From the NCBI GenBank assembly GCA_950097015.1, contig CATNEN010000039.1, positions 10,478,001 to 10,542,000 of the forward strand: DNA of 64,000 nt, read 5' to 3'. The stretch is from Macrostomum hystrix (taxonomy: Eukaryota; Animalia; Platyhelminthes). A program made the position numbers and the translations under genes. Below the pieces are notes generated by a model. The model saw nothing but the letters and a program-made list of their open reading frames with translations. It was not told where the DNA came from and made no database searches. The stretch's first letter is position 1. Every line of letters begins with the position of its first letter. Positions 36,672 through 62,664 of the stretch are shown one piece after another.

Positions 36672-37204
36672 AGTAGTAGGGGTTAGCAGAACACGGCCGC
36701 AGGAAATTCCGTGGAAATTCCATGGCATGCATTGTAGTTTGGAATTGGTGAGCAGTCAAGGTAAAAGGTATGTATTTATATGTCTGTATATACTATCTAG
36801 CTCATATAATATATAAAATGTGTATATCCGGAAAACATTGATATTTTGTGAGTATAGTTCTGAATCTTGAGTCTGATGAGATAGAGCTGTAGTATGACTG
36901 TATGCAACTCTGCCGCACTTGTACTGAGGAGATAAGCGACAATGCAAATTGATAGTAGGGGTTGGGTCTATGCTGCTGGGATGGCTGAGCCAATCAGGCC
37001 CTGGTAAGAGAGTTGTGCCCCACCTGCAGTGGAGCGCAGGCCGAGCCAGGTAAGAGATTTTATGATTTTATGGTGATATGGTTGTGGCTGTGGCAAGCGG
37101 GAAGGCAGATAATGGTGGAATGTAACCAATCGCGCTGCGGAGAGTGCGCCTGCATGCACACAGTGACTATGAGTTGCTGGGGGTGTGGGGGCGAAGCCCC
37201 CACA
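36672..37204 (+). repeat. left terminal inverted repeat (533 bp)
   Basis: Starts AGTAGTAGGGG; reverse complement of 61964-62459 with about six substitutions and two small indels by eye. Confidence 0.95.
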
Positions 37205-39216: not shown

Positions 39217-40968
39217 ATGAATTTCCTGCAGCTTGTTTTTCGGTTGCTTCTTTTGCTTCCGTTGTTACACGACGATGTGGCTTCTGGCACCCGGATCTGC
39301 AGATCCTTACATATAACCAGCAAGGGCTATGAGACCCACAGAAATGTTAGTCGCTTGCAGGCGGAGTTGACGGCTTTAGTAGCTGGCTGCCAGTATGTAT
39401 TCGGCAACTTGGAGTTGGGCAATATAGGTATGAACCAATCAACGTACCAACCGCTGGACGATGAAATTCGAAACATGCAAACAGACTTTCTTGACTCCAT
39501 TGTTGAGATCAGAGGAGCACTGACGATCAATTACGTCAGCCTTAAGCGCGTCACCTTCCGCAACTTGCGCACAATCCGAGGTTACGCTTTTAATGAATCT
39601 ACTACTGACTTCCCATTATATTCATTTGTATTATTCTTTTCGCGGAACATGAGGAAGCTGGAATTGCCCAAGCTGACTGCAATCACAAAGAAAAATGTAT
39701 ATCTATTGGGGTCAATTCAGTCTAGCTTGTACTGCTACCTGTCCTACAGCATCAACTGGAGAAGCCTGTTTCAAGAACCAGGCCAGCGTTTTTCTGATAA
39801 CATATTTTCTGTTATTACTGAAGAAGGCCAAGTTCTTCTGAGACGCTGGAGCTCACATGCGATAAGGCATACCTGCAATCGTCTGCTTTCCTGTCACGCC
39901 AATTGTACTCAAACTCCAATTTATAACAAAACTTGCTGGTCCGACGGTGTTGATGGCTGCCAAAGTAATCATCTGTGTCGTAAGCGCAAGTGTAAATCTA
40001 CGAACCTATGCTTCCGTAACCCTAGCACTGGCCAAGAAGACTGCTGCCACGACGACTGCCTTGGCGGTTGCTCAAACCGGCCCAACGAGTGCTTCGCCTG
40101 TCGCAGAGGAGTATTGTTCAATGGTGTCTGTAGAGAATCCTGTCCGTCGAATACTAGTACCGCTAGTGGCAATGGCACTGGCGTGACTGTTTGGCGACAG
40201 ATCGGCAACATCTGCGTAGAGGAGTGCTCACTGCCCTTTGTTGTTAGCTCTGACGGCAGGCGCTGCTTAATCGAGTGTCCGTCAGCAGAAGTCCCTATCA
40301 AAGGAGTTTGCTCAAAGTGTATTGACAAAATTAGCTCTAAGCCCTGCAAATCGTGCAATGTCTCCAATATAATTACTGACGATTTAGTATACTCATTGAG
40401 GACTGAGCAGTGTTCGATTTGGAGGGCCGATTTTTCTGATCTAGTCGTGCATGCTGATTGGTTAAGTAGCTTAGATAACCTGAAAGTATTGGAGAATTTA
40501 GAGTACTTTTACGGCAATTTAATAATTCAGAGATCTCAACACTTGACAGAAAATATTCGATTCCTACGTAATATCAAACATGTCACTTCTTCCTTTGAGA
40601 TTGAATTTCTCAAGACGAGATACCTCGGACTAGCTAGCTTGGAATATACTCCTAACCTTGAGCTTAAGGATATTAGTGATCTTTGCAGAGCCTGGTATCC
40701 TAGCAATCGAATCCGAGAAATCCAGGAAGTCACTAAAGAATTTCAAATTACAATAGAAAACCTGAGCTTCGATGACAGCAGCGAGATTTGCCGGAACGCT
40801 ACCTGCGATGCTCAGTGCCAGGACGAATGCTGGGGACCCGGTCCAGACATGTGCGTGGCGTGTCGGAACTTCAAAGTGAACGGCCGCTGCTATGCCACCT
40901 GTGCGGAGTCGGGCAGGATTGAAGTAAATGGGAATTGTGAACTGCCTGTGCCACAGCTAATCGGCTAA
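39217..40968 (+). CDS. intronless secreted EGFR/ErbB-like ectodomain (L1, furin-like Cys-rich, L2, partial domain IV), no TM or kinase
   Basis: Signal peptide; GCQYVFGNLEL, FLDSIVEIRG, FRNLRTIRG; CHANC..CW...CQ, DCCHDDCLGGC..CFACR; LGLASLE; CDAQCQDECWGPGPDMCVACRN. Confidence 0.9.
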   Translation: MNFLQLVFRLLLLLPLLHDDVASGTRICRSLHITSKGYETHRNVSRLQAELTALVAGCQYVFGNLELGNIGMNQSTYQPLDDEIRNMQTDFLDSIVEIRGALTINYVSLKRVTFRNLRTIRGYAFNESTTDFPLYSFVLFFSRNMRKLELPKLTAITKKNVYLLGSIQSSLYCYLSYSINWRSLFQEPGQRFSDNIFSVITEEGQVLLRRWSSHAIRHTCNRLLSCHANCTQTPIYNKTCWSDGVDGCQSNHLCRKRKCKSTNLCFRNPSTGQEDCCHDDCLGGCSNRPNECFACRRGVLFNGVCRESCPSNTSTASGNGTGVTVWRQIGNICVEECSLPFVVSSDGRRCLIECPSAEVPIKGVCSKCIDKISSKPCKSCNVSNIITDDLVYSLRTEQCSIWRADFSDLVVHADWLSSLDNLKVLENLEYFYGNLIIQRSQHLTENIRFLRNIKHVTSSFEIEFLKTRYLGLASLEYTPNLELKDISDLCRAWYPSNRIREIQEVTKEFQITIENLSFDDSSEICRNATCDAQCQDECWGPGPDMCVACRNFKVNGRCYATCAESGRIEVNGNCELPVPQLIG

Positions 40969-43900: not shown

Positions 43901-45239
43901 TATTTCTAAATCTAATTACGCTTGCAGCAACGTGCGAAAAATCTGTCCTTAGTTTTATACTGAATAGCGCCTTTTTACGGAAAGACTATATTTTTTTCAC
44001 TATATTAATACTCGTACCCAAAAGAGCTGAATAAAAATGTAAATAGAAAACAGTTACTGATAATTATGCATAACAATAATTAGCTACCCCTAGATAGATC
44101 ATACTACCCCTCAATAATTCCTGCTAGTGTTGTAGTGCTGCTTTTTAATAGCACTTCCCTAGTAATTTAACTTCCTCTATTAGTAATACATAATGCAAGT
44201 GGTTGGCTTAACTTCCTTATTTATTGTTTTCAGTCACTTAAAGTGACCTGTACAATCATTATACCGCACCCCTGTTGGGTTGATTGATTCAAACTACTGA
44301 TAGTTTGGGTAGCGTGGCTTTCAACACGATAGGTCTGGCCTTCTGCCAGTAATGTTCTAGATACTAAATCTAGGTAATTCTGGAGACACTGCTCTCAGGT
44401 GTTTCAGACAATTTAATCAGATATTTCGGGCTCTCTGGCCAGTCTGTACTCGGGCTTCTCCCGGATCGGTCTTTAACGGTTTCCACTCACTTAGAAATAA
44501 GTAAGGCTTTTGAGCATGCTCACAAAGAGACTGAACTGTTTAAGCTCCAATTTAATGGCAGACCAAACGGTTAGCTTCCTGTATGAAAACCCCTCTGTAT
44601 TTATACCAAAAATCCTATCGAATATTCCCAGTATATTTCAGTGGAGTAAAACAAAGTTTATGTATAGATATTTGTAGCATATAAAAATATTTCGCGCGCT
44701 AGTTTAATTTGGCCAATGAGAGCCCTTTACACTATCCCTAAATAAATTATTCTATCCTTTTGAAAAAAGTGCTATACCCTGAAAGTATTATGTTATCCTA
44801 GAAATCTCATGCAATGTACATTAAGTTAGCACATTAAGTTAGCCATATATTAACGCACGTAGGGTGCTACAAGTAGTGACGCAATCCTATTCAATTGAGA
44901 GCATCCGCCCTGTTCTGTGCTACTAACGCACGCACGGGCGAGAAAAAGCACAGATGCAATCTTCTAATAAAGCTGACAGTGTCCGGCCCTATTCTACCGA
45001 AAAAACAGGGTCTATTGTATTCTGGATCTATTCTAACAGAAAATGACGGCTTTTTCGAGCATTAAATGCCTTTAAAATTAGCAAATAATTCGCAAAACGT
45101 GTAACATCTCGTTAAAAGGCAAATATTTTAGAGAAAGAATCGCGAAAATCGGACATCGTTTTTGCTAGAACAACGACAAGACCACATTTTACATTGAGTG
45201 AATGGACACACACACTTTTAGCATAATAGAAGATAGAGA

Positions 45240-45900
45240 GTACAACATCCCTCCCAATAGCTCGTATTGGTTAAAGACGGAGGAATAGAAAATGATTAAA
45301 ATAAGCATTTTGTTTCTACGCATGCGAAGCTCACAAAAGGTAACGTAGTTTGGCACGGGACACAAACTTAAATGCTGTAGGTAAGTCAGATTGTCACAGT
45401 CAAGTCCTTGTTAGCGGTTCGCTTTACTTTGACACCGGATGCTGCCATCGACGGGCGTTCCGAACATCAGATCGGCGGCGGAGATTCCCGTGACGGTGTC
45501 TGGCGTGTTGCTGTACACGGCGAGCCACTCTCGCAGCGCAGCTCGCCAATCAGTTTCTTGGGCTTCAGAAATGCAGAGCAGCTTGCTGAGGGACCGATTT
45601 AGTTGCTCTGTAATGCCATTTAATTTGCAGTGGTATCGTCTGATGCGTAGATGGCTAATCCTGAGACTTTTGACAAAGCTGTTCAACACCTTTGATGCAA
45701 ACAGTGGGCTGTTGTCGGATACAACCTGTCCTGCGGTTCCGAACGTCCCGAAGATCTGCTGCAGTTTTTTGATAGTGGCTTCTGCTGTCATCGATTTCCT
45801 GGCACAACGAATGGGTAGCGTTAGAAATGTTCGACAACTACCATGAAGTGCCGGCCGTTAATTGGCACGAGGAAGTCAAACACGACGGTCTCTGGCGCTG
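45240..45900 (-). mobile_element. Gypsy-like integrase remnant with PPT/LTR start
   Basis: TAEATIKKLQQIFGTFG...VVSDNSPLFAS...NGITEQLN; GGGAGGGA-TGTTGTA at ~45255-45241. Confidence 0.75.
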
Positions 45901-46169
45901 AGTCTCTGGCCTTGACAGAAAAGCATGAGAAATGATACGCAGGAAAGGATGGAAGGAGAGCGTCGCGATGTTACAGATTTCGCGACACTCAGGAAATCCT
46001 ACTCAGAAGTGCGGATATCCCTTTCGAATTTCCTTGTTCTCCATTGCCTACCCTAATAAGTCGTTGCGTTGCTTTAAGGCGAGGGACTCAGCCTTTTCAC
46101 AATATTCAGCATCAGTCCTTTGGTGCAGTGCTAGGGCTAGCGCTGCATGGTCTCTATTAAAACTAATTA

Positions 46170-46439
46170 GTGGCTTTTAAAGGCCGATTGTATGCACAAT
46201 CGCGCTGCTATGTCGAGTGTTTAGAATGTCGTCCGTACTGCATTTCAGACAACAAGACCTTCACAAAGACTGACAGGCCAACCAAGACAGTCACCGCCAC
46301 TGTTGCAACCAACTGGACTGTGTCCGTTGGTTGCAACAACGACCTCTTCTGTCTGGAGGAGTGCGCCAGCAGCCCCAGCTGCCAGGCTGTGATTTTCAAC
46401 GAACGGCAGCTGCTGTGCCACCTGCTCAGGTTTTTTTGA
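46170..46439 (+). pseudogene. PAN/apple-domain fragment
   Basis: FCLEECASSPSCQAVIFNERQLLCHL Cys pattern; no clear start or signal peptide. Confidence 0.5.
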
Positions 46440-47879
46440 GTGCCACTCAAGCTCAAAAATGCTCCGAATAACTTACACCGCGGACCACAAAAATATCTGG
46501 AGAACTAAGGCAGGGACCACTGAGGAAATCGCCAGGGGAAAAAGCATCCGAAATCTCACATTTTCTCGCAACCATTGCCGATCCAAACATTTCCTTCACC
46601 TGCTACAGATAGGTTACTATCAACGAAATGTCAAGATACGAGCGTAGGCCATATTTGAGTTACGAGTTACATAATTGACTGCTCACATATTAAAGTTAGC
46701 ACATTAAAACGTATTTAAAACTAGTCTATTTAACTGCATATTATTTATACGCGGTTTTGAGGTCCTTAATAAAACAAAAATCGATTCTGTTATACTGCCA
46801 AACATGGAAAAAAGAAGGTTAAGCGTCTAAAAATTTCCTGTTTGTTCTAGATCAGAGATACTTGGCAGAATGCGATTTGTACAAAGTTAAAATTTGTTTC
46901 TTTACACGAAAACGTTACAAAACCGGAGTGATGCAGAACCGAGATTGAAACGCGAAATTATTCTTTTTTTCCTTTAACAATTCTTCTAGCTTGCTTATAT
47001 GGTTTTTCGATTTCAATTTTTTCAGTTTTACTTCACTAGCTTCTGCGCCATAAAATTTAATATTCTACCAAAATGACTCATTTAGACGAAAAAGTCTTGT
47101 TGGGAAATGAACTGAATATTGCTTGTACTCTCTTGCTAGCAATTAGACTTTTCTTTTCTGCGTGGCCACTAATTGACAACCAGGCATCTATTGGATAATT
47201 ATCTGCATTGGATAATATTGGAAAATTACCTATTGTAGCTGCCGAAGACCGCGTACAACGTTCCAGCCCCCAGAACCTGCCGTCTATTGCCAGCACGATC
47301 GCCATAGTCCCGAGGAGAGGTCCGATCGGCGTGTGCCGATCGCCATTCTCCTGAAGAAAGGCAAGACATCCGATGAGATTGGCTTCTTCTGGTCGATTGC
47401 CCTGAACTCAAGGCTGGCTAAGCTAGCCGAGCGTTAGGTCCAAGCGTGGCTCTACGGGTGGGCCGAGTTCCAGCACACCTTTTACTTTTTACTTAATTGC
47501 AGGGGGCCTGGGGCACTTGACGCACAAGCGCAGGAACGACTAGGCGGGAGTCGCCCATCGCGCCATCTGGACCCCTGGACACAGAAACCTCACACAGCCG
47601 CAAGCCAAGCGGGGAAGGGGGCGGCAGCCGGAGTGCCTCTATCTCACCACAGGCCCGCACATGCACAGAGCAGACCAAACCAGGGGAGGACTTAGATGCC
47701 TGAATGGTAGGGACGAAAGGACCAAGCCACGCGCGCAGACGGCTGGTGAAACCTCGACGCTCAGAGCACGCATGGCTGGTGCACACCCGCCCCACCCCCA
47801 TACAACGCCTCACTGTCGGCCCAAGGCACAAACACAAACACAAACAAGCAGGCATGCAGAAGGCAGGGGTTAGGCTATT

Positions 47880-48720
47880 CTAAATTAGCTTTGGTTGCAC
47901 AGAATAAGGTGCATCTCCACAAGTCACTACTTCGCAAATCTCCAGCTAAGCCCCGAAATTAGCGTGACTTGGAGGGAGGAACGAACCAGCGACCATTGGA
48001 AAGTGAGGCAGCGACATTCGCCGCTGACCCACTCACCCCCTCCTGCTGCACCCCACTCAGGCCGGTCGATGCGCAGCAGCAGATTGCCCGGCTTACTCAG
48101 CTCATCAGTGACGGCCACCAATAGCCACCCGTCAGAGGAACGGTGGCCGTCTTGTTTGAGTTCCGTAGACTGTATAGAATCAGGGCCTGTTGCACATCCT
48201 GCACGCCGCCTGGATCCGGCCGCGGGCGTTCGCTGGCAAACAAGCCTCTTGGCTGACCGACGAGCTGCTGTCAAGGCGCATGGCGCGCTGAGCAGCTGCC
48301 GGATCTTTCGCGAGGTCCTGCCGCAGTCGCGTTTTTGCCCCACTGCTCTTTGAGCTGAACATCAACGACCTACCCGGCTGCTGTCAGAGTACGTGTATTC
48401 TAAATGAACGTTGCTTGACGCAGACGATCTCGCTGTCGCGGTGCAAGGCTTGACTGCGGAGGAGGCCGAGGCGAAAGCGCAGCGGGCAATTGACGCGGTC
48501 ACCGCCTGAGAGAAGACTGGTTTATCTTTGGCTAAACGATATAACTTTCGCCTTGGACCGCCAGCAGCGCTTCCTCGGCATCATCCTGGATCACTGAAAT
48601 CGGGGTTTCCAGGCCTCTATAGGCGTCAATATTGCACCTGCCTGCGGTTTTTTTATACGAGATTGAGGAGAAGGCCGCTTACCTGTTTAATAACTAGCCT
48701 AGCTTACTAGCCCTGTCTCT
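47880..48720 (+). mobile_element. heavily deleted non-LTR retrotransposon remnant (APE SDH motif + RT)
   Basis: TSDHW; LADRRAAVK; FAPLLFELNINDL; ADDLAV in shifting frames. Confidence 0.65.
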
Positions 48721-48902
48721 TCACCTCCACGAAGAAGTGGGCTAACGTTACAGCCTGAGCAGATCTCGGATATCTCCTGCTTTTTCCTGTGGCGAACAGA
48801 GCGGTTGGGCGCTGGTCAGACATCCGTTCTGAGCAGAGAAAGCTTGGGCGAAGCGCTCAGCCGCGCAGCGGGCTGCCTCCCCTCCTAGCCGGCTGCATGG
48901 CC

Positions 48903-48904
<2 letters not shown>

Positions 48905-48958
<54 letters not shown>
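48905..48958. repeat. (CA)n microsatellite
   Basis: Direct observation. Confidence 0.95.
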
Positions 48959-48959
<1 letters not shown>

Positions 48960-49375
48960 CTTCGTGTTTCACTCTTGGATTCGATTTGATCGAAATATTT
49001 TCAAAAAGGAAAATAATTTTTATTAAGCGTCATACAAATTATTAATTTTCGAAACATAAATGTCCATATCCTAGGCTTTTTAAAAAGTGTACCTGCTTTC
49101 ATAGTTCAAGCATGAGTTCTACGCTGCTTCATTGTCAATGTCATCTTTTATTTGTCAGCTTTTGGTAAAAACCTAACTTCCGTTATAATTAATCAGCAGT
49201 GCTGGAAATTCAAAAAACATTTTGGCTAACTGAGCATCTTAAGTGTTTTCGGAACAAAAAGAGTAAAGGATTGTGTTTTTTTCTTTGTGTGCATTATATA
49301 TATATATATATATATGCATTAACTGGCTGATTGTGCAAATGCTTCATTGCAACATAATCTTATATTCATATTTTT

Positions 49376-49625
49376 AGAGTGGGTTGTAGCCTAGTGGTTA
49401 GATTCGAATCGCAACTCCGCTGTTGCAATTTTTGTGTCCTTTAGCAAGACTCTTTACTCTGAAGTGCTTCAGTTCACCCAGCTGTTAAATGGGTTCCAGA
49501 ATTTACTGGGGTAATTGAATTACTCGTAGGTGGTGTGTTGTCCCCTCAGTCCACGGACTGAACAGCCGTACGCAGCCTTCGCTGCGGCTGTGCTGTCGGC
49601 TGCACATCTGACCCCGAGTGGTAAA
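49376..49625 (+). mobile_element. tRNA-derived CORE-like SINE (internally deleted head)
   Basis: ggttgtagcctagtggttag head shared with 4198-4296; tgtgtcctttagcaagac...ttcagttcacccagctgttaaatggg resembles the CORE domain. Confidence 0.7.
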
Positions 49626-50268
49626 ATTTAATATTTTTTATTATAGTTTCTATTATTACTATTTTTTAGAAAGAAAAATTACAGTTTAGTAAAATGGATT
49701 TTGAATCTCACCTGCACTTTTCTATATTTGTGTGCGACTCGAGCAATTAAATTTAACTAGATTAAGTTGGCCTGTGATTGTTCTATTGTAAGTTTAGCAA
49801 GTACAACTGGATTGATTGGCATTAATTGACTCGCTTTTGTTGTGAAAATATTATTTTGTATAATTTCAGTCTACTAAAAGTGTCCAATCATCTGGTGCGG
49901 ACATCTCAGACTTTGATGAAAAAATTGTCGGACATAGAAGAAGACTTGTCAGAGTCCACAGACACAGACTTGTCGGATTCAACTGGCACTAACTGGTCTG
50001 ATTTGATAGATCAAAGCAGGCTTTCAGATTCTGAGTCTAAACCCGGTCAGAGAAAGACTGGAGAAAAAAAACTGAGATACCGACAGCAGCAACAGCAGCA
50101 GCGGCAGTGGAAGAAGCAAGGACACATCCTATAGCGAAGAGCATAATGCTGAAAGCAGCGCAAGCAATGAAGGTAAAATAAATATATACCTCACATGTAT
50201 TATTTCCTTGCTGTATATTTTATTACGTAATATGAAATAAATGTATACTTGTACCTTCGTTTATACAG

Positions 50269-53200
50269 GCAGTCTTCAGATCATCAATAACGGAGCTGTA
50301 CAAATCATCACAGCACACAATGGAATTATTGAAGCTATTCGGATTCACCCACAGCAGCAGCAGCAAGACGCTACAGGCTCTGATAGGGAACAATCTGAAG
50401 TTGATGCCTTCGCAGGTGTGGCAGCGATGAAAGACTATATTTGCCAGATGCTCTCTGAGAGACTGCTTGTAGGTGTGAACCAACTGGTGCGTGCTCAGCT
50501 GAAGCTTAATGTGCACATGCAGCGGTTGAAAGCAGGTGAGATGGTGGTTGAGGAGGATAAGTGGATTAGTGTTCCTATGAAACAGCTAGACTCAGTTGAT
50601 GAAATCGGCTCATGGTGGACTGACCAATTGAATGGCTGTGAGAGAGTCATTGAGCTGTTAAACACTAATGGCAGCGGCTGGGTGCTCGGCCGTGTCAATT
50701 ACGTTGACTTGTCTATAGCACATGGGGACAGAATTCGCTATTATGCTGGTCATGCCGATCAATTCGAGCTACCCCATGATCTATTAAGTGAAGCAGGCTG
50801 TAATTAATCCACCTAGCACTGGTGATGATTCCTTTGTTTATGCCTGCATTTCTGTCCTTCACCATGATGATAAAGAAATCAGAAAATCGCCTCATCGATT
50901 ATTATCCTACCAGAAATGGCTTCATGAAATCAATTTGGATGGTGTACAAAAGCCAGTTCAGATTAGTTATCTTGATCGAATCGAGTTTAATAATCCCTCG
51001 TTGTGCTTCTCTGTGTTGACTTGGAAGAATGGGACAGTTGAAGTGTTGAGACAGCCGAATGCAGAACTCACCGAAGGTAGAAAAGTAATTCCACTTCTGC
51101 TTCTGACAAAAAGTGATTTTAACACCGTCACCAACACTAGCACCAAAGGGCATTGGTGTGGGATTGTTAGCCTCAACCGTCTTCTCAATAGTCGTTACGG
51201 ACTGCATCAGCGAAAATGGTGCGAAAGATGTCTAACATCTTTTAAATCTGAAGAGCGCCTCCGCACACATCGTGATGAATGTTATCAGTCCAACAGCTAT
51301 ACGCAGAAAGAAGTGATGCCCACAAAAGAAAAATGTATGCTATCATTTACTAGTCATGAGAAGACTATTTCTCCTACATTTGTTGTATACGCTGACTTTG
51401 AGTCATTTAATGAGCCAGTGAACACTGAAGCTTCATCAGGACCGAGAAATGTTTACCATCACACACCTGCGGCTGCAGGTTGTCTAGTTGTTCAACGTGC
51501 AGGTGTAAAAGGACCACTTCTTGGTGATAGTGGATCGATTTATCAGGCTTTTACTGCTGACACTACTGAGAACTGTATTGAGAAGTTCCTCTTCTATCTA
51601 GAAAGACTGTCTCATGAAATTTATGAGTGGAACAAGAAACACAGTTACCAACCTAAAATTATCAATGAAGCTGCTTAAGATGAATTCGGAGAAGCTGAGA
51701 TTTGTCTCTACTGTGGTGTGAAGTTTGATGGTGAAACTTCTTTGAAGGTGTGGTATCATGACCATTCCTCAGGCGAGTTCCGCGGTGCTGCATGCTCAAA
51801 GTGCAACCTTTCTGCTCAGCTGAAGCGACGATACTTGCCTAGGTTCTGCTTCACAATCTTAAAAACTACGACATGCATCTAATTCTTTCTGCGGCATTGG
51901 GAAGAATGAAGCATTGGCGACTTAATGTGGTGCTAATGACCATAGAGAAGTATTTATCTCTTGCTGCTGAAGTAAAAGTTGATGCAGTAACAATTCAAGG
52001 AAAGAATGTGCCACTTTATGTGACGATTCAATTTTTGGATTCTTTCCTGTTTCTAAGCAGCAGCTTGGATTGCCTTGTCAGGGATTTGCCAGCAACCGAG
52101 CAAACCCACACAGGTCGCTTGAAAGAATTCTATCCGAATCTCAGCAACTTTACTCTCGAGGGCAAAGGCGTTTTTCCATACGAGTTCGTTAAAAGTGCTA
52201 CAGACTTAGAGTTGAGAGAGCTGCCACCTCGGGAAGCATTCTTCAACACCCTCTCAAAGACTGAGTGCTCCCCGACACAGTATGACCGAGCGAGAAGAGC
52301 TTGGGAAGAATTCGGAGCCGAAACTTTGAATGACTACATGCTCGCCAATCTTCAAATGGACGTCAGACAGCTTGCAGACGTATTTGAATCTTTTAGACGA
52401 CTAAGCATTCAGGACGATGGCCTTGATCCCGTCCATTTCATCTCTACTCCTGGATTGTCGTTTGCATCGGCCATGAAGAGCACCACAAGTAAGCTTGAAC
52501 TTTTGACTGACAACACTATGTACAGGATGTTTGATAGTGTTGGCGTGCGCGGCGGAATGTGCTTTGTTAATGTGCACCAAGTAGCAACAATCAAGTCAGA
52601 TGTTGAATCAGCTTTACTTATTCCGCTTGATGTTAATAATTTATATGGAGTCGCACTTTCTATGCCGCTACCCTGTAAGGATTTCCGATGGGTCGAGCCG
52701 GAAGTTCTCAGAACCTGGACTGAGGCTACCATTCTAAGTCAGCAGGACGATTCACCTGAAGCATTTCTGATTGAGGTTGATTTACATTACCCTCCAGAAC
52801 TTCATGAGCAAACTAGCGAACTACCTCTGGCACCTGAAAAGTGTTCAATCGAATTTGAAGAGTTCCCAGAATTCATGCAGCAGCTCTGGTACAGTCTCAA
52901 TCCAGACGGTCGAGTGTACAAGGGCAACAGAAAGCTGCTACTCGATTGCTATGACAAGCAGGGCTATATTGTGCTTAGCAGAATGTTGAAGTTCTATCTG
53001 GAACAGGGAATGAAAGTAGTTGAATTCAAACGAGCTATCCAGTTTTCACAAGAAAGCATCTTGGAACCCTACATTCGAAAAAATACTGAGCGAAGGATGG
53101 CATCGACGTCAGACTTTGAGAAATTCTACTACAAGCTCAAGATCAATTCAGTCTTTGGAAAGACCATGGAAAATGGCAGGAAAAGGAGAACAATCCGAAT

Positions 53201-53984
53201 TTAAAGTAACGAAGTAAAAGCGAAGATGCTTGCGTCAAAGCCAAATCTGAAGGAGGTAATCGTGATCAATGAAGATTTGACCATCTTTGAGTTGAGTAAA
53301 ACAACAGTGAAGCTGGATAGACCCATCTACATTAGTCAATGTGTTCTTGACCTATCTAAGCTTTACATGTACTCACTTACTGTACACCAAATTAAAACCA
53401 TGGTTTGAAAAAGAAAATGTGCGTCTGGAGCTCTGTGGCGGTGATACTGATTCATTTTTCCTATGTGTTAGGAACATCGATCTTCTGCGAGACTTCTTGC
53501 CTGCTCTGATTCAACGAGGCATTCTAGATACCTCCAACTATGTTGAAAACCACCCGTTGAAGTCTAACAATTTTAAAGCAAAGCCTGGTTGCATTAAGGA
53601 CGAATCCTGCGGGATTGAATTCGTGAGTGGATTCTTCTCCGACCAAAGCTCTACAGGTTCCAAAGCACTGTTACTAACGCGAGTAAAAAGGCTGCGAAAG
53701 GAGTTCAGAAAGCAGTGCTCAAGAAAGAAATTAGCCATGCGGATTACGTCGCTGCATTTGACTCACTCAAAACTCATGATGTTGTCACTCATCGTATCGG
53801 TAGTCATCATCACGAGATTTATACTATTCAGCAGCGCCAGCGAGCTTTGACAACGTGGGAAGATAAGCGAGCTTGGATTAGTTCCAACGAAAGTCTTCCG
53901 TTCGGCCACTATCGTCTTCGGCATGATGTTGCTGCTGATGCTGCTGCTGCTGCTGCTGCTGCTGATCCTGTCGCGAAAACGTGA
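50269..53984 (+). pseudogene. polB: protein-primed family B DNA polymerase with EndoVII/HNH-like insertion; at least 6 stops/frameshifts
   Basis: GSGW, AVINP, CERCL..F...H..C, VVYADFES (ExoI), HDH.SGEFRGAAC..CN, HNLKNYD, KGVFPYEF, DVNNLYG (A), KLKINSVFGKTMEN (B), GDTDS (C), KDE, EDKR. Confidence 0.95.
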
Positions 53985-54868
53985 GTTCTTTATTAACCAA
54001 TCCAGTTCTCTGTACACCATTGTGGTAATCTATTTTCTTACCCCTGTTATCTGCCCGCTCCGCCCTTCTCTATCTATTATCGATTGTGTCGCTGTCCCTT
54101 TCCGCTAACCCCCCTCCAGTCTGGCGTCTACCCCCCATTGTTCACTCACCCCAGGGTTTTCATACCCTCTTTTGTCTCTCCTCGCTGTCGACCCCCTTTC
54201 TGTCCTAGCATATCAAGAGTTATAATATCGTCTGGTGTATCGGTTCAAAGTCCCCCCTTCATTCTCATATCTCTTTTGTAGCGAAGGTTTCAACGAAAAT
54301 CAATTTAATACAGAGCGGTCAAGGAAGAGGAGACGTGCCCCAGCTTTCGCAGAACAAAATCTGAACTCACAAATTTCTTAACTATAGAAATCTTGCGACA
54401 AGAATCGTTAGTTTAGTGACAGACCGATCTAAATATTGCCTTATTGTTTTAATCTCATTGAATCATTTTTTCAGCTACTGACTTTATTTACATTGAAAAT
54501 ATTATTTGTTGTTAACCACTTTTAAGCTGTTGCTTTCTTATGCGTTTTAATAACATAACGTCTTATATCAAATTTCTTTAAATTGTTTTCCAAGTTATAT
54601 TTCAGCTATATTTGCTGTCAGACCCTAAATGCGCATTGATATTTCCGATTTGATTTTGTATTGCTTTGTTTTCATGGTGGTGGTGCCCTGTTCTCTGTTT
54701 TTTTGCCTTTGTTTTATGCGTACGTCAAATTTTTTTTCTAAAATCATTTTGTTTTATGCGTACGTCAACTTTTTATGTCAGTAAAAATAAAAAATAAAAA
54801 CATGATTTGTCTTCATATCCGTAGCATCAATCGCAGACATAAACGTGATAGGCTTGTGTGTGTGTGTT

Positions 54869-55443
54869 TTATTCTGCATTCGAGATCAAATTTTGTAGGT
54901 GCACAAAGTCAGATTGTAGTTGAAATAAAGAACGAGCTCCACTTAGAACAAAGGAGCCATTGTGAAACAATAGACATTTGCAAAAGTTAAGTTTGAAAAC
55001 TAGTGCGGAAAATGATTCAGATTGATAAAATGCCTTTGGGATTCTCAAAGACAAGTCTGACAAATACAGAGCAGAACAAACAGATAGCTGTCCATGCGCA
55101 GTAATTGTTTTAATTCGAACACAAACGGGTTGATAAGGCAGCAGCTGAGCAGGCACTCTGCGATGCAGCATAGCCACGAAGCGATGGGCAGCCCTGACTG
55201 AGTCCGAGTAGCTCCGGGCGCCACAGATGCTCAGTTGGCCAGTGGGGTAGAGTAGCAGTGTCACTCTCGGATTCCGGATCCCCTCTTGATGAGCACTCGG
55301 TGCCAGACGGGTCGGTAGATGACATGAGCCATGCTGAGAGTGAGTTCCCGAAGTGGAAGCTGGGCGTCCCTGCCACCGGCCAGTCTCAGATCCACTCCTG
55401 CGACCAGATTGGTAACTCTCGGGGCTGTTGCTTGAGTAGTCAT
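54869..55443 (-). pseudogene. TATA-binding protein (TBP) homologue, ~190 aa, one frameshift in a G-run near 55280
   Basis: PRVTNLVAGVDL...LRELTLSMAHVIYRP...VLIKR / IRNPRVTLLLYPTGQLSICGARS...AAHRFVAML...YQSESFSALVFKL...CLLFHNGSFVLSGARS follows both TBP core repeats. Confidence 0.85.
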
Positions 55444-55544
55444 TTCTAATGCGTCGGCTGTTTGTGAAGTTGCCCGTGCTTCTAGTGCAGGAGGAGCAGT
55501 TTGAAATTGTCATGTGCCACGGGCACTGCTCGCTTCTTAAGCTG

Positions 55545-55972
55545 ATACAAAATGTTGGCTTCAGCCAGCTGTAATACAAAAGCGCGTTTCTCACGGCGCA
55601 GCCGGTATCTGATGTTTTGCTAGATGGCGATCCCAGATCCTCCAGGTTGTACACCTGCCTGCCCAACAGCTGGGTCAGAAATACACACTTATTCTCCCTA
55701 CATGTCCAGGTGGGCTTGCATGCAATTCTTCGGATGTCAGCAGCCAACTCCGTGTAAGGTCGGGTTCCATCGGTCCACTTTAGCCTATGCCGCTTCTGTG
55801 TGAGCTGTCTGTATCGAATTCGCATTCCAGGGGAAACCCTCTCCCAGGAACATGGGGACGCATACACATGGTGGGTGATGAGTTAGCTTCCTGACCTATC
55901 TTATACAACTGCCATCTCCTTCACAATGAAATCACTGTTACATGGAAAGCCTTGGATGTCGATGTAGTACAT
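55545..55972 (-). pseudogene. hypothetical DEDD/DnaQ-exonuclease-like protein, two in-frame stops
   Basis: MYYIDIQGF...FIVKEMAVV...HRLKWTDG..PY...K..FL...VYNLEDLG.P...CAVRNA pattern; fold call is inference. Confidence 0.5.
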
Positions 55973-55981
55973 TTTCAGTCG

Positions 55982-56699
55982 TTAATCGAATTCTTGGCCA
56001 TTAGAATCAGCCCGCTGCTTTCTTATATACTTTTTTTGCTCACCTAGCTTCAGCCAGGCTGTCTTGCACCCAAATCCCTTAACTGCATGTTGTTCTTTTC
56101 CAACTTCAACCTCTTCACTGGTAGCTGGCAGAGACATTTGCTGTCTGAGGGATTTTCCTATAGCTGAAACTGGGACATTAGAACTCTTTTGTCCCAGCAA
56201 GCAAACGAAATCATCCCACCCGGCTGGTTTATTTCGCATTTCAGAATCCCTCACCGCATGCTGAATCAAGTCGACGATGTTCGATGAGGAAATTAACTTG
56301 CCGGAAATTTCCGTCTCCCCACTGTCACCCACCCGAATCAGAGACGGATTGGCTGATAGGATGGCCCATAGACTGCGAGCGCTGGTTTTGAATTTCTGGG
56401 GCACGGACTGGGCAATCTTTTCTGCCCAGCTGCTCGGCAGCATCTCTGCTTTCTGTTTCTGTGCCGCTTCACTCTCTCCTGCTACACTCTCCTTTCCAAC
56501 TTGCTTGCGCTTGGACAACAAACTTTTCATAGCGTTCTGGTACATTGTCTGGCCAATCGTCGGCATACAATATATCATCACATTTTATTTGTGCCTGCTT
56601 TACCGCAATGTCTCCTGCAGACTCATTGAGCTTCACATTACTCATTAGCATGTCATACTCAGACTTGGGAATCAGAACCATCTCGGGGAACTTGTTCAT
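55982..56699 (-). pseudogene. conserved Maverick hypothetical protein (frameshifted)
   Basis: MVLIP N-terminus; GE..I.G..I..SNIVDLI...P.GW..F...L...NVP...IG motif typical of animal Mavericks. Confidence 0.65.
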
Positions 56700-57006
56700 T
56701 TTCCTTCTTTCTTCTATGCACAAGCTTCAGCAGAGTGGGGAGAATTTTAAGGAAATTATGATTTAGCAAGTCAGCTTCTTTTCTTTGAGCTGGGATTTTT
56801 CGAATAATCTGCTTGGACTTTGCCAGCTCAGCCTTTTCAATAAGAGAGAAAGTCAGGTTGTTTTCCAATAGGTTGTAACAGGCTTCAACAAGGAATTTTC
56901 GCACTTCTTTCGGACCGTGCTTGATTAGCAAGCGCTTGAAGCTGACAGTGTATTTCGCTGATGCAAGAATTGCAAAGATGCTTTCATGAAAACAAAGCGT
57001 GTCCAT
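56659..57006 (-). CDS. conserved small Maverick hypothetical protein
   Basis: E.CYNLL.NN..S..EK..L.K.K..IRKI pattern; sits directly after the ATPase. Confidence 0.55.
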   Translation of the reverse strand: MDTLCFHESIFAILASAKYTVSFKRLLIKHGPKEVRKFLVEACYNLLENNLTFSLIEKAELAKSKQIIRKIPAQRKEADLLNHNFLKILPTLLKLVHRRKKENEQVPRDGSDSQV

Positions 57007-57045
57007 TGTGGAGTATAGATATGGAAAACAGCGTATTTGCCATTC

Positions 57046-58047
57046 TTAGGTATAAACTAGGTGGGGGCGCTGGTTGGGCAGGATCCGGGCTCGCACTCGC
57101 AGCTCATCGGGAGTGGATGGGTGGAAATCCAGAAGCAGGTAAGCTCCCCTACCTTTAGCGGTCACATGCTAAAACACAGACAGCAGAAAGCCGGGCTTCT
57201 CTACAAAGCACTGCCTGCCCAGTGCTGCAATCTGCAGCTGGTCTCTGGGGTTTTTCATGATGACAAAGTACATCGCATTCAGACTAATCGTTCGCAACTC
57301 TTTTCCTTTAAAAAATACACTCTGGGTCAGCATTACCAGAAAGCAGGGTAAGTGATGAGCGATTCCGGTGAAAACATTTCGCATCGCAGCAGAGTTAGAA
57401 GTCTCTTCAATCAAATCATCAAAAACAATCAGGTCATTGGGTCTTAGAGCCGCCTCAATGTTGCTGGGGAATCCCTGCTGCATGTGCACTCCCAGGCTGC
57501 TCAGCTCAGAGTGCACTGTCTGCGAAACCCCATAGTACCACAGGACTCTCTCAGGCTTCGTATCAAACATTTTCGCACTTCGCTTCTACAGATTGGCTAA
57601 AGCCGACTATGGAAACCAGTGCGAATAGAACCTGCTATGATGCCCGCCTGCGGCAGGGAAGCTGCATGAATTGCATGCAAGCCCACCTGGACATGTAGGG
57701 AGAATAAGTGTGTACTTCTGTCCCAGCTGTTGGGCAGGCAGGTGTACAACCTGGAGGATCTGGGATCGCCATCTAGGGAAGTTGGAAAAGAACAACATGC
57801 AGTTAAGGGATTTGGGTGCAAGACAGCCTGGCTGAAGCTAGGTGAGCAAAAAAAGTATATAAGAAAGCAGCGGGCTGATTCTAATGGCCAAGAATTCGAT
57901 TAACGACTGAAAATGTACTACATCCCTGTACTGAATTAGCTGCTTCACGAAGGTTGTCTTGCCAGCATTGGTTGGCCCGCTGACAATCATGCAGCTTCCC
58001 TGCCGCAGGCGGGCATCATAGCAGGTTCTATTCGCACTGGTTTCCAT
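57046..58047 (-). pseudogene. A32/FtsK-like genome-packaging ATPase, interrupted by ~350-bp insertion (57571-57924) and a stop
   Basis: Walker A GPTNAGKT; Walker B LIVFDDL; HH...LTQ; RTISLN..Y; KNPRD..QI..L.RQ; YLLLDFHP. Confidence 0.92.
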
Positions 58048-58079
58048 AGTCGGCTTTAGCCAATCTGTAGAGCTGACTT

Positions 58080-58595
58080 TCATAACTTTCTTTTTCTTAG
58101 GCTGGCTTCGAACTGCCGAAGCATTCTGTCATTCAGGTGGCTCTTTTCCTTTGAATGCAGTTGTCGCAGAACCCACTTAAATGACCGTTCGAATTGAAAC
58201 TTCTGATAAGTAAAATAAAGACAGAAGAGGCCGCATTTGACGGAGTCACAGCTTTGAATTCGATCCACATTGCTGCTCAAACGAAGCGGGGAACCTAAGG
58301 CTACTTTCAGTAAACCATGAATAATCATTCAAGTTTTCGAGTCCCAGCCAAGGGAATTGAAAAGCTCCACAGAATTCCCGCAAGTGACGTCGCAAACCAC
58401 CCAGTGGCCTGACAAGGAGCTGTGATGCAACAAAATGAAAATTAATTTGCTCTTATATGTTTTCTCATTCAGGTAACTCCACAATTGTAATTCTAATTCA
58501 GCATTATTGGAACTATTCAAATTTAGAGACACTATAAAAACGTTTCTAGGGGGCAAAAAGCTTCTGGCAAGTTTAAACACCTGAAAAGTGTTCAT
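58080..58595 (-). pseudogene. adenain-like cysteine maturation protease, one in-frame stop (58329-58331)
   Basis: GHWV...ELFNSLG...IQ...SVKCGLFCLYF. Confidence 0.88.
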
Positions 58596-58597
58596 AA

Positions 58598-59882
58598 TTA
58601 TGATGAAAAATCTAGCAAAATTTCCCTATGCTTGGTGACTTCAATCAGAGAGTCATACAGGCACATGGCAATCAGAGTCACGGCCTCGTCAAGCGCCTGT
58701 CGGAACCGAATCTCCAGCCGCAGTTTTCCCTCTTTCTGTCCGTACCACAGGGCTGCTCCCTCGGGTGTGAGGTCGAACGCTAACACGGTGTTGTCGTTGG
58801 AGAAGACCTGATAGGGGATCCAAGGGACCGAGTTGGTGGGGCTGGCAGACTGGAAACTTTTCAGGTAGTGCAAGTACTCTCGCACAAATGAGTTGTTTTC
58901 GGGTGTGAATGCACCGTGGCACATGGTTTCCCCGCCTTTCTTTAAAGCTAGCTGGCTGAGGTTGAAGCTCTGGAACTCGAAGGGGCTGGTGTGATGATTC
59001 CCGTTGAAGGCTCAGTGGCTCACGAAAGCCAGCATGATGAACTTAGGGAGTTTTCAGTGGGTAAAGCCTTCAATGTTCCTCGACTGGATTCCCTGGGGCA
59101 GAATAAAGTTCTGCATTTCGGCTCGCTCCATAGGATAGAGCGCATTCTGGTTGGTCAGTCCCTGCTCATGGGCTAGGCTGATGTGAGAAGCCACCTTGAC
59201 TCGGCGGAGATGCAGGATGCAGTGGGAGATTTCCATGCGGTAGGCTGTGTTGTTTGTGACCGGGGTTCTGATGGCAAATGCAGCGTCGCTGCGCACCAAC
59301 TTAATGTGCAGGTGCAGGTTGTTCAGCAGGAACATGGGGCACTGGAAGATGTCGCTGAGCAACGGTCCGGCATACTCCACCCAGCGGGACTGCCTGTGGC
59401 TCTCCATGTGCGCCTCTGCAGCGGAGTCAGATTGCAGGAATCCAGCGGGGTAGAACTTCAGCTGCTGGGCGTCTGAGGAGCTCATGAGAGCTTTGAAATA
59501 GGCATGATAGGGATAGAGTTGGTCTCCCCCGGACACAACTCGCTGGTTAATGCTCACAATGACATCAGAGAAGAGCGTAGACAGGACGAAGTTTTCAGGG
59601 TGCACATCACTGTCTCGGCGCTCTGTCAGCTCTCCTTCAGCGTTCAGAACATTCTCCCTCAGCAAGCACCCATCCAGTCGGACTAGGCGGCAGCGAATGT
59701 ACAGTAAAGAATTCAATAGATCGGTGTATTCGTCAGCTGATGGGTGGCAATCGAATTCGATGGGTGCATTTGCAGCAATTGAGTTTCACGGGGTGAATAT
59801 CGACATAGGAGGATTTGTCAATGGCAGTCTGCAGCGCAGGAGCCTTGAACAAATCGAGCCTTGGGTTGAATCCATAAGCCAT
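58598..59882 (-). pseudogene. double-jelly-roll major capsid protein (hexon-like), frameshifted
   Basis: LDLF.AP.LQTAI...V.IHP...PIEF...Y.DL.NS.LY; LFSDV.V.IN; YPYHAY; C-terminal LAFDLTP...G.LRLEIRF..AL...VT.I....D..IEV...R. Confidence 0.92.
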
Positions 59883-59884
59883 GT

Positions 59885-60075
59885 CTACGACAAAGAGTCC
59901 AGCACGCGCTTCACCGTTTTCCTGCCGACTTTTCGCTTCCTCTTGCTTACCGTTTTGCCCTTTGCTTTGCTCTCTCCTTTCTTAGGTTTCTTTCTACCTG
60001 CATTGTTCCGTTTCCTTGATTTTTCCCCTTCTTGCCATTTTGGCGAGGTGTCTTCTGTATTCTCTTTTTCCTAGA
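59885..60075 (-). pseudogene. basic C-terminal remnant of putative core/DNA-condensing protein
   Basis: QEGEKSRKRNNAGRKKPKKGESKAKGKTVSKRKRKVGRKTVKRVLDSLS* between penton and hexon; N-terminus apparently lost. Confidence 0.45.
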
Positions 60076-60116
60076 AGCTTTAGCATATTAGTACTGCCGG
60101 ATCAGCTGCTGATAGT

Positions 60117-60904
60117 TCATCGAATAAGTTTCTCCCGGATCTGGATCGTGAGCAAAACAGGACTGCAGCTCTGAGCAGTCAGATGGTGACCAAATGTATC
60201 CCGCAGTTGAATTCGAATGCTGTGTAGAAAATTTGCTTTCTGGATTGGGAAGAACAAAGTTTTCTTAAACAGTTTGCTAAAGTAGCAGCCCCATTCAGCA
60301 TTAGAACCGATGTTCACAGTTCGCAGCAGGGAGTCCCAGTTGCAGCTTGTTCACTCAACAAGGCTGCAGTGCACATTGACCAGGTTGGTGGGCGGACAGC
60401 CGATGCAACAGCTTGACACGTGGCGCCCAGGTGGGATTTTGATTGACTGGTTTCCAAATCCCAACCACTGCAGGATTTTGCTTGGAGGAAGATACAACTC
60501 TGCTCGTGCGGTATTGTTGTGCATCACTGTTCGTTGATTCTGAATTTCAAACTTTATCCCAAAATCTTTATTGCTGCGAGCCATCAGGCCCGATTCATCA
60601 GCCTCCATCTCAGACTCTCTATCGCTCATGGCATCAAAGAACAGTGACTCAGAGTTGACTAGCAGCTCATTCAACCGCTCCACCAGCGTCCGGGTTGAAG
60701 AACCAGGGCCTCATGCTCTCTTCCATCTAAGACTGTGAAGCAGCAGGGCTCGTCAACTTTGAGCCATGCAGCAGGCAGATGGATTTCAGCCAGACCTGCC
60801 TCATAGTCCACATTTCGATCCAAGTATATAGGTGCAGTCAGGCGAAAATTAAAGTCACTAGAAGAACCTTCTGCATGCTCACTGTTTATTATGATGCTGC
60901 TCAT
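60117..60904 (-). pseudogene. minor capsid protein (penton-like), frameshifted
   Basis: S.DF..RL..PI.L...YEAGLAEI.LP..W; VHCSLVE; LLRTV; FFPI...SIRIQLRD..G...V..TI.IR. Confidence 0.85.
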
Positions 60905-60946
60905 TCCTCAAAATCAAAATATTCAAATATCGAATAACTTAGATGT

Positions 60947-61170
60947 CTATACCTTTCTTAAGTCCTTCTCATCCACCCAGCCAGTCGAGTTGTAGTCGGC
61001 CCACTTTACGAGATAGCGAATCTTTCCCTTCCGCTTCTCAGTCTTTAGAATCTTTTCAATCACATACACCCGCAGGGAGTCCGGAACAGCTTAGAGTTCA
61101 TGCTCATAAAAGAGTCATTGAATGTCTTCCCCCCTCATGTCGCGAATCTTGTACATGTAGGGATAATGCT
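60947..61170 (-). pseudogene. Maverick integrase C-terminus with chromodomain; catalytic core absent
   Basis: YKIRDMRGEDIQ*LFYEHEL*...YVIEKILK...RYLVKWADY..GWV.EKDL. Confidence 0.85.
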
Positions 61171-61928
61171 TTGGGGGATAATCCTCCTTCTCTTCATCAT
61201 AGGTCAGCTTTGGCAATTCGTTTGCGTCGTACCTGCGCAGTGGCCAAGGGACCTTTCGTTTGCAACTGCCGCTGCTGTTGCTGCTGAGCGACGAGGCGGC
61301 GCGAAATTGGTACCAGACTGGATCGCGGCTCAAGTCGCTGTCCTGCAGTGGTAAGCGCCCAGATGGAGAGGAAGAACCCACACTGCTTGCCTTGCCCGAC
61401 TGGGCGATGAGTAGCGTCTTCCGGTCCTCCTCCTCCTCCTCACACGTTCCTTCAACAGAAGCCAGCTCAGCCTTGACATCGATGCCCACCTCACGTTTGA
61501 CGTCTTGAGTGCCCAGCTCATATTCACCTTCTGGTGATTTTCCTTGCAGCTCCGAGTCAATCCAGCTCGCTTTTTTCCATAGCTCATTCCATAGGCGGGG
61601 TGACAGGGCCACGGAATTGCGCCTTAGGTATTCTTCCGTACTTGAAGATACTCCGTATCTTCGAGAAGACGCTTGAGCCAGATGGTTCCTCGGCTGACCA
61701 TCGCGATCTTCTCAAAACCAAGCTTGATCGTGACGTTGTGTCGGTTGACCGCGGAGTGTACAAGTTGTTGCTTCACTTGCTTTAGTTTTCCCATTGATAC
61801 GCGTTGAGATTGAATCCGGGCACGCCTGGCTTCAGTTCTCGTTCACTAGAATAGAAGCGCCGAATCGCTATAAAATGATGACCTTCATAATCTTGCACTT
61901 GCACTTTAAACCCGTCGCAGAGATCCAT
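61170..61928 (-). pseudogene. PC4/Sub1-like ssDNA-binding protein (domain 61782-61928) with frameshifted acidic extension
   Basis: MDLCDGFKVQVQDYEGHHFIAIRRFY....LKPGVPGFNLNAYQWE matches the PC4 pattern V.V..F.G...I.IR..Y....KPG..GI.L...QW. Confidence 0.8.
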
Positions 61929-61963
61929 GCTCAACAATCTGATATAGCAGCGATGAGAATTTG

Positions 61964-62459
61964 TGTGGGGGCCCCCACACCCCCAGCAACTCGTCACTGT
62001 GTGCATGCAGGCGCACTCTCCGCAGCGCGATTGGTTATATTCCACCATTATCTGCCTTCCCGCTTGCCACAGCCACAACCATATCACCATAGAATCATAA
62101 AATCTCTTACCTGGCTCGGCCTGCGCGCCACTGCAGGTGGGGCACAACTCTCTTACCAGGGCCTGATTGGCTCAGCCATCCCAGCAGCATAGACCCAACC
62201 CCTACTATCAATTTGCATTGTCGCTTATCTCCTCAGTACAAGAGCGGCAGAGTTGCATACAGTCATACTACAGCTCTATCTCATCAGACTCAAGATTCAG
62301 AACTATACTCACAAAATATCAATGTTTTCCGGATATACACATTTTATATATTATATGAGCTAGATAGTATATACAGACATATAGATACATACCTTTTACC
62401 TTGACTGCTCACCAATTCCAAACTACAATGCATGCCATGGAATTTCCACGGGATTTCCT
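61964..62459 (-). repeat. right terminal inverted repeat, outermost ~29 bp missing
   Basis: Reverse complement of 36701-37204. Confidence 0.95.
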
Positions 62460-62664
62460 ACACCAATGCAAAACGTTGTCTTTCCTCAGCTCCTGTAAGA
62501 CAAGTAAAACTGAATTCATCACTTATAAGAAATATTATTTCGCGAGTGTTTCTAAGAAATAATCGGTTTTCAAATCGCACTCAATCAACTGACCTAAGCG
62601 AGAAAAACATAATTAGCAAAACAGAATACAATAATTAAGATGCATGGATAAAACTGAACAGTTA
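62460..62664 (+). repeat. third, partial copy of the peptide-gene 3' flank
   Basis: Similar to ~36404-36634 and ~25940-26068. Confidence 0.85.

Follow-up and report, generated by a model that had tools for sequence, protein, structure and literature searches.

How Mavericks, which have no RNA polymerase of their own, time the expression of their capsid genes is an open question. It is raised by a locus of the flatworm Macrostomum hystrix, where a gene resembling the one for TATA-binding protein (TBP) stands among the genes of such an element. The stretch of DNA analysed here, which we call the window, comprises 64,000 nucleotides (contig CATNEN010000039.1, positions 10,478,001 to 10,542,000). 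An initial annotation had assigned the gene to a Maverick/Polinton and had suggested that its product might redirect the RNA polymerase II (Pol II) of its host to the element's own, possibly non-TATA, promoters or compete with host TBP. What kind of gene is this, does it belong to the element, and what would an unbroken version of it do?

The TBP-Like Gene of the Window Is Broken

The gene consists of two pieces separated by a frame break:

55285..55443, minus strand: N-terminal piece of the TBP-like gene, 53 codons from the ATG (tblastn with residues 1-57 of the relative P0004, 68%)
55280..55284, minus strand: frame break in the TBP-like gene, window copy
54869..55279, minus strand: C-terminal piece of the TBP-like gene, 136 codons plus stop (Pfam TBP; PDB TBPs)

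The minus-strand frame beginning with the ATG at 55443 runs for 61 codons, and a second frame leads from about 55279 to the stop at 54869. The C-terminal piece (136 aa) matched the Pfam TBP profile in two stretches with E 3.8e-14 and 52.7 bits, above the cut-off of 22.9, and its comparison with the PDB sequences returned 35 matches (best E 1.3e-9), 100% of which are TBPs or TBP fusions. The N-terminal piece (53 aa) gave no match when searched alone against Pfam; it shares 83% identity with the N-terminus of one unbroken relative. The Pfam and PDB matches confirm the initial reading of two open reading frame (ORF) pieces in different frames encoding a protein of the TBP fold, and the ORF order agrees with its placing of this gene as the last of the minus-strand virion block.

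The window copy is broken, decayed and incapable of making the protein. At 7 of the 112 columns that the family holds invariant, it differs from its relatives. The frame break itself may be a mutation or an assembly error. Five of the seven contigs of run X1 (which may not be independent of the window) that lie over the frame break differ there in length from the window, and none of the ten contigs from three runs that cover position 55277 (assembled contigs, not raw reads) matches the window at that place. The neighbouring exonuclease-like frame (55444-55882, minus strand) is open across the N-terminal part of TBP in the window copy and in P0012 of Macrostomum lignano; the latter carries a similar break a few codons from that of the window, and both copies can be read as exonuclease-TBP fusions. 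Programmed frameshifting to produce such a fusion was considered and set aside, since the gene also occurs unbroken and on its own in relatives and the majority of contigs disagree with the window at this place.

The Surrounding Element Is a Decayed Maverick

The features of the element, from left to right, are as follows:

36701..37192, no strand: left inverted-repeat arm, 98-99% identical to the right arm
50241..53984, plus strand: protein-primed DNA polymerase B (PolB), in several frames (DNA_pol_B_2, E 2.8e-16)
55444..55972, minus strand: exonuclease-like gene with two in-frame stops and no Pfam match, joined to TBP in P0012
55982..56699, minus strand: PZ-like gene, broken, joined to TBP in P0010, P0013 and P0164
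56659..57006, minus strand: PM-like gene, gene order as in the available text of PMC8097293
57046..58083, minus strand: packaging ATPase with P-loop GPTNAGKT (Pfam P-loop matches below cut-off)
58080..58595, minus strand: adenain-like protease with one in-frame stop (Peptidase_C5, E 0.0022, below cut-off)
58598..59882, minus strand: major capsid protein, broken, 77-82% to the unbroken P0162
59884..60904, minus strand: PW-like basic protein and minor-capsid-like gene, broken, labelled by position, no Pfam match
60947..61230, minus strand: integrase C-terminal remnant with chromodomain, core absent (Pfam Chromo, E 2.5e-6)
61510..61928, minus strand: PC4-like gene, broken (Pfam PC4, E 2.4e-6, above cut-off)
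61971..62459, no strand: right inverted-repeat arm

The plus-strand PolB gene converges on the minus-strand virion block, which reads from the right: PC4, integrase remnant, minor capsid, PW, capsid, protease, ATPase, PM, PZ, exonuclease, TBP. The exonuclease-like label is presumed from an N-terminal DxQGF motif, and the minor capsid, PW, PM and PZ genes are likewise tentatively labelled by position. Vertebrate Mavericks share the order integrase, minor capsid, PW, capsid, protease, and ATPase, PM, PZ, and have inverted repeats of similar length, as described in the available part of PMC8097293. Unlike the elements described there, the window element has ATPase-PM-PZ after the capsid module on the same strand, followed by the exonuclease-like gene and TBP, with PC4 at the right end.

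The inverted repeats (467-492 nt) enclose 25.8 kb; their arms start with AG and are devoid of (AGT)2 or (AG)3 end motifs, and no 6-bp target duplication was found at them. For the packaging ATPase and the cysteine protease the position fits, and the profile matches below cut-off were obtained on broken pieces. The integrase is represented in the element by the chromodomain-bearing remnant only. An rve integrase fragment at 45411-45857 (minus strand), also below the Pfam cut-off, may belong to another element; we take it to be more like an LTR-retrotransposon integrase than a Maverick one. When the model of P0162 was compared with 48,161 chains, the top nine were jelly-roll proteins of viruses, either capsid or scaffold (Z 8.5-9.9), matched with an rmsd of 3.9-6.6 over 151-171 aligned residues of the N half only of a model with a pLDDT of 41.6. 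The capsid alignment found no match among the PDB sequences, and an atlas search with the capsid protein gave no result. The structural match is supportive, not strong, for a predicted double jelly-roll major capsid protein. Taken together, PolB, the inverted repeats and the capsid match uphold the Maverick context proposed for the TBP gene.

Most genes contain stops or frame breaks; the exonuclease-like, capsid, protease and integrase sequences are interrupted by in-frame stops. The ATPase gene is split by an inverted duplication at about 57585-57987, composed of near-exact copies of 55620-55728, 55961-56107 and 57987-58071, which is a recent internal rearrangement. Because of the stops, the frame breaks, the ATPase inversion and the missing target duplication, we regard the window element as a fossil, of Maverick type and decayed rather than intact.

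Several other features deserve mention. The PC4-like gene adjoins the right repeat, with an apparent second PC4-like unit past a frame break; judging by its sequence, it gives the element another transcription factor of host type besides TBP. Between the repeat arms, an intronless ORF at 39217-40968 (plus strand) encodes 583 aa resembling an EGFR ectodomain (Receptor L, E 2e-16; Furin-like, E 1e-13), with a signal-peptide-like start and no membrane segment before the stop. The only plus-strand TAAGAA hexamer in 37000-54200 lies 7 nt before its ATG, and no homologue was found at E 1e-20; the ORF might encode a decoy receptor that was captured, or it might be a host insertion of unrelated origin. 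The repeat-bounded region also holds a low-complexity 234-aa ORF without Pfam match (37878-38582, plus strand) and a PAN-domain fragment (46167-46439, plus strand; E 0.0036). The arms abut copies, 80-95% alike, of one host repeat family (35500-36634 and 62459-62664; also 25039-26097), and two insertions may have recombined to give the locus, or the element may have a preference for this host repeat. Positions 1-36000 form a host-like flank, in which we labelled by eye fibrinogen-, CUB- and leucine-rich-repeat-like exons, numerous minisatellites, and fragments resembling mariner, LINE and Gypsy elements.

The TBP Gene Recurs in Sister Copies and Is Probably an Old Capture

Among 16 candidates, five proved to be relatives: four full-length, unbroken proteins of 190-202 aa at 66-71% and one fragment at 90%. 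The named unbroken relatives come from M. lignano (including PAA46374.1). All four match Pfam TBP (PF00352) in two stretches (E about 1e-22 to 1e-23), and they are about 30% diverged from one another. Four M. lignano gene models join TBP to Maverick genes, namely P0010 (PZ-like), P0012 (exonuclease-like), and P0013 and P0164 (capsid, ATPase, PZ-like), the last two of which may be one locus. Run X1 yielded 125 contigs on 53500-57600, and on one of them, 1913 nt long, TBP is connected with the upstream gene. Of 374 sister-contig differences, 40 were listed; 19 of these fall in the TBP ORF, 11 of them at third codon positions (p 0.024), which points to constraint on the protein. In the RNA-guided annotation, similar transcripts share a name prefix, as stated in the available text of PMC5730564, and an M. 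lignano model name ending in g17 is a hint, not proof, of many copies and of transcription; Mlig021525 and Mlig030348 were not found in the published supplements searched.

Since the unbroken relatives and the joined models place a TBP-like gene in sister Maverick copies, a check that the initial annotation had proposed, the gene is not a one-off retrocopy. By these sequences, it appears as a regular part of a multi-copy Maverick family. Scans of viral contigs with the C-terminal piece, alignment A2, P0125 and a capsid piece retrieved no relative, nor did a metagenome scan with alignment A2; a metagenome scan with P0014 gave one weak match of 35 residues on a 1541-nt contig, which is uninformative.

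Searching 1.84 billion representatives with a profile gave 1539 matches, of which 150 were listed; among the matches listed, the metagenome proteins P0014 (48%) and P0021 (31%) carry the derived residues of the family. Trees were computed with FastTree (146 rows, for which coverage kept 138 of the 144 remaining listed matches) and with IQ-TREE (46 rows picked by hand from these). The family, P0014 and P0021 form one clade (97; 100/96; 100/97), which adjoins short TBPs with Thr159 (97/87; 96/85) and is separated from the rows of archaeal-like and eukaryotic-like type (99/96; 100/99), the groups being labelled by motif rules, the branches long and host TBP absent from the tree. The short TBPs P0040, P0047, P0057, P0067, P0095, P0111 and P0125 (170-185 aa, on contigs of up to 18.8 kb) have Thr at the Asn159 position in 7/7 cases and are likely other element-borne TBPs.

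That a host retrocopy or neutral passenger simply fell into one Maverick appears very improbable. The AU test does not reject a grouping with cellular eukaryotic TBPs (p 0.102, in a tree that does not hold the host's own TBP), and the window copy is broken and has departed from invariant columns. However, the same neighbours are found in four other gene models, the unbroken relatives are widely diverged, identity to the human TBP core is 22%, and the metagenome relatives share a well-supported clade with the family. The gene is likely an old capture, with the donor not fixed by the tree.

The Family Keeps the TBP Saddle and the TFIIB Dock and Has an Altered DNA Face

P0004, a natural relative, was folded with six sequences and gave a model with a pLDDT of 81.6. 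Its best PDB matches are TBPs (TM about 0.8, 20-25% identity), with Foldseek giving E 3.7e-14 and TM 0.82 to 1mp9; viral matches (BFVD) are giant-virus TBPs at 8-20% structural identity, and the atlas search returned TBP clusters only. The model has the shape of the TBP saddle, so that both profile and fold bear out the TBP identity of the gene. Cellular TBPs (PF00352; yeast 1tbp, human 1cdw) share this two-repeat saddle and both stirrup glutamates; they differ from the family in sequence (22-25% identity), and the family lacks an N-terminal extension and has a six-residue insertion after strand 1. The unbroken relatives consist of the TBP core only, without a large Pol II-binding N-terminal domain, and are basic (23-25 Lys/Arg vs. 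9-12 Asp/Glu).

Residues are numbered as in yeast, anchored on the available text of PMC7221094, and the DNA-contact set comprises the first 16 residues of Table 1 of PMC12529657. Among the four relatives, 112 of 188 columns are invariant (N lobe 69/99, C lobe 40/78). Seven of the 16 contact residues are kept (Asn69, Val71, Leu114, Phe190, Leu205, Phe207, Val213) and nine are replaced (Phe99 by Pro, Ala101 by Val, Phe116 by Tyr, Val122 by Ser, Thr124 by Cys, Asn159 by Thr, Val161 by Thr, Pro191 by Ser, Thr215 by Ser/Cys), 8/9 of them by the same residue in all four relatives. Of the four intercalating Phe residues of canonical TBP, the two in the C repeat are kept and those of the N repeat are Pro and Tyr; of the dyad Asn pair, Asn69 is kept and Asn159 is Thr in all family rows. 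The initial annotation had thus correctly noted the retention of both C-repeat Phe and the change of the second Asn to Thr. Its claim that the N-repeat Phe are replaced holds for both positions; the change of Phe116 to Tyr (found in all family rows, never Trp) is conservative, and at the Phe99 column the four unbroken relatives have Pro, preceded by Trp one column earlier, so that the His read there at first belongs to the window copy only and not to the family. Pro at this column may weaken DNA bending.

The equivalents of the TFIIB stirrup residues Glu186 and Glu188 are present in 7/7 relatives, and the window copy has lost one of them. The N-lobe basic patch, which serves TFIIA, TAF1, Mot1 and Brf, is partly lost: the Arg141 and Arg90 positions are Ala, Lys145 is Arg, and Arg137 is kept in 3/4 relatives, with positions 137 and 141 mapped by offset from the available text of PMC7221094 and positions 90 and 145 placed by inference. 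According to the same source, the TBPs of Nucleocytoviricota are likewise virus-encoded proteins of the TBP fold with an eroded N-lobe regulatory signature; they have the first stirrup Glu conserved at about 40% and are mostly paired with a viral TFIIB. They mostly lose the stirrup glutamates, whereas the family keeps both, and neither TFIIB nor RNA polymerase was found by Pfam among the 30 window ORFs of a copy that has deletions. An element-encoded TFIIB is possible, as the integrase core and other parts are missing from this copy.

Because the TFIIB stirrup is kept and the N-lobe patch is partly lost, we favour, judging by these residues, a redirection of Pol II over competition with host TBP. 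The same features could be expected of a decoy or shut-off factor that titrates host TFIIB/Brf or occupies host promoters without productive initiation: the stirrup glutamates are kept, two of the four intercalating Phe are replaced and half of the N-lobe patch is gone, a loss that PMC7221094, in its available part, ties to escape from Mot1. We consider such a factor unlikely. The replaced DNA-face residues are invariant in the family and the N lobe is its better conserved half, which is as expected for a new specificity and not for a dead face; moreover, shutting off host Pol II would presumably harm an element without its own polymerase.

TAAGAA as a Candidate Promoter Box

The hexamer TAAGAA occurs before several genes of the virion block:

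55532..55542, minus strand: putative promoter box (RYY)TAAGAA, lying 96 nt upstream of the ATG of TBP
56025, 57048, 58099, 59984, 60267 and 60960, minus strand: six further TAAGAA sites

On the coding strand of 54800-62459, all seven TAAGAA sites lie 16-147 nt upstream of predicted starts (7/10 starts), and the other strand has one. The aligned sites read RYYTAAGAAAG, with a purine at -3 and a pyrimidine at -2 in 7/7. The protease, PZ-like and PC4 starts have no TAAGAA within 150 nt, one site overlaps a stop codon, and the right inverted repeat contains 0/7 of the sites. The motif was found post hoc in one decayed copy, and several start codons are assumed.

The statistical results depend on the null model. 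In a best-hexamer null that keeps the upstream amino acids, 61, 10, 4 and 20 of 1000 trials reached the observed value at 99, 120, 150 and 201 nt, respectively, and synonymous-codon resampling expects 1.1 sites vs. the seven observed. A random-window null gave P 0.02-0.48, a circular-shift test of the hexamer at 100 nt was not significant (53/150), and position-restricted motif searches were null, with 28-40 of 40 null sets equally good. Two other meanings of TAAGAA, an initiator like the TAAG of baculoviruses and a branch point for splicing, are possible and were set aside. We treat TAAGAA as a candidate non-TATA box, a lead of moderate strength; its clustering before virion gene starts makes the non-TATA promoter foreseen by the initial annotation plausible as a prediction. 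This clustering before the element's own genes also speaks against the decoy described above.

The hexamer might be a mere by-product of basic protein tails, with the protein serving as a general TBP substitute of relaxed specificity for conditions where host TBP is scarce. The upstream windows are indeed Lys/Arg-rich (22% vs. 11%), significance is weak at some window sizes, and a canonical TATATAAG overlaps the TAAGAA site that precedes the exonuclease-like gene. Nevertheless, the excess of sites persists when the amino acids are preserved, and the central contacts Asn159 and Val161 are replaced, making such a substitute distinctly improbable. Little more probability attaches to a role outside Pol II transcription, be it DNA bending or packaging at replication ends or in genome condensation, or recruitment of Pol III through Brf. 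The protein is basic, its gene lies in the virion block, and Brf1/2 use the same glutamate (PMC7221094, available part), but the presence of both glutamates in 7/7 relatives implies contact with an adapter, the right inverted repeat holds none of the seven TAAGAA sites, and the genes behind the motif are protein-coding.

Discussion

In this work, we provide evidence that a divergent TBP is carried by a Maverick family of Macrostomum. Virus-encoded TBPs are known as a kind; the family described here is live-looking, and its window copy is dead. As the stirrup glutamates are kept and the DNA face is changed, the protein likely steers host Pol II to genes of the element. Somewhat probably, judging from the residues and sites described above, the unbroken protein would act as the element's own promoter factor and use a non-TATA box to supply the virion genes with the host's TFIIB and Pol II.

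In cellular TBP, the C-repeat Phe pair takes the first T-A step of the TATA box, and Asn159 and Val161 leave no room for a G-C pair at position 4. Positions 3 and 4 distinguish the candidate TAAGAAAG from TATAAAAG, and the first T-A step is common to both. Such a mechanism would work as follows. The unbroken TBP would bind the non-TATA box, for which TAAGAAAG is the candidate; its C-repeat Phe pair would open the first T-A step, while Thr in place of Asn159 and of Val161 would make room for G at position 4. The insertion of one Phe pair at the first T-A step of a TATA box is described in the available text of PMC10005294. The kept stirrup glutamates would then dock host TFIIB, and host Pol II would start on the virion genes; partial loss of the N-lobe patch would weaken control by TFIIA, TAF1 and Mot1, and the element's PC4 co-activator homologue would perhaps aid transcription. 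DNA binding by the protein, TAAGAA as its target, host TFIIB as its partner and a late timing of the virion genes are inferred from the sequences.

The best functional analogy to the family appears to be ORF24 of KSHV, a viral TBP of beta/gammaherpesviruses, which reads a non-TATA late box with host Pol II (PMC12529657, available part). Both have polar residues at the Val122, Thr124 and Val161 positions. In contrast to the bare 190-aa core of the family, ORF24 is a protein of 752 residues in which all four Phe are retained; it makes direct contact with Pol II, and the prediction is that TFIIB is not bound. TRF2/TBPL1, a TBP paralogue, has lost intercalating Phe and does not bind TATA (PMC10005294); according to the text of PMC7221094 it has Trp at the Phe116 position, where the family has Tyr, and the family keeps both C-repeat Phe.

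An earlier description of TBP-bearing Mavericks, which the initial annotation had named as speaking against its reading, exists in part. A TBP gene is labelled in a MELD virus with an adintovirus-like PolB (Starrett 2021, PMC8502044, Fig. 5 legend), and that midsize linear dsDNA element is Polinton-like, as here; the label stands in the legend, and no analysis of residues or promoters and no mention of Macrostomum accompany it in the available text. In the literature searched on Polintons, Mavericks or adintoviruses and TBP, this was the one direct mention, and subscription papers, Repbase reports and bioRxiv supplements may hold more. The main texts of PMC8097293, PMC11131425, PMC10748475 and 10.64898/2026.06.19.733378, in their available parts, do not mention TATA or TBP; the available part of PMC13134418 and the supplement of PMC12896417 yielded nothing further. 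TBPs also occur in mirusvirus-like algal elements (PMC10675990, available part).

A more specific proposal, which we put forward tentatively, is a one-protein switch resembling a sigma factor: a 190-aa TBP that would read TAAGAAAG and not TATAAAAG, plug into host TFIIB and thereby define a promoter class unusable by host TBP, and that would belong, with other short TBPs of the Thr159 type, to a broader lineage distinct from the cellular groups. If true, no smaller viral device for late transcription would be known than this bare, re-specified TBP with its TFIIB dock. It would represent a third route to the control of virion genes, beside that of the giant viruses, which bring their own TBP, TFIIB and polymerase, and that of the herpesviruses, which use a large TBP mimic binding Pol II. 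The family would offer a protein-site pair that can be tested directly in a model animal open to transgenesis, a natural experiment on the recognition code of TBP and, possibly, an orthogonal TBP-promoter pair.
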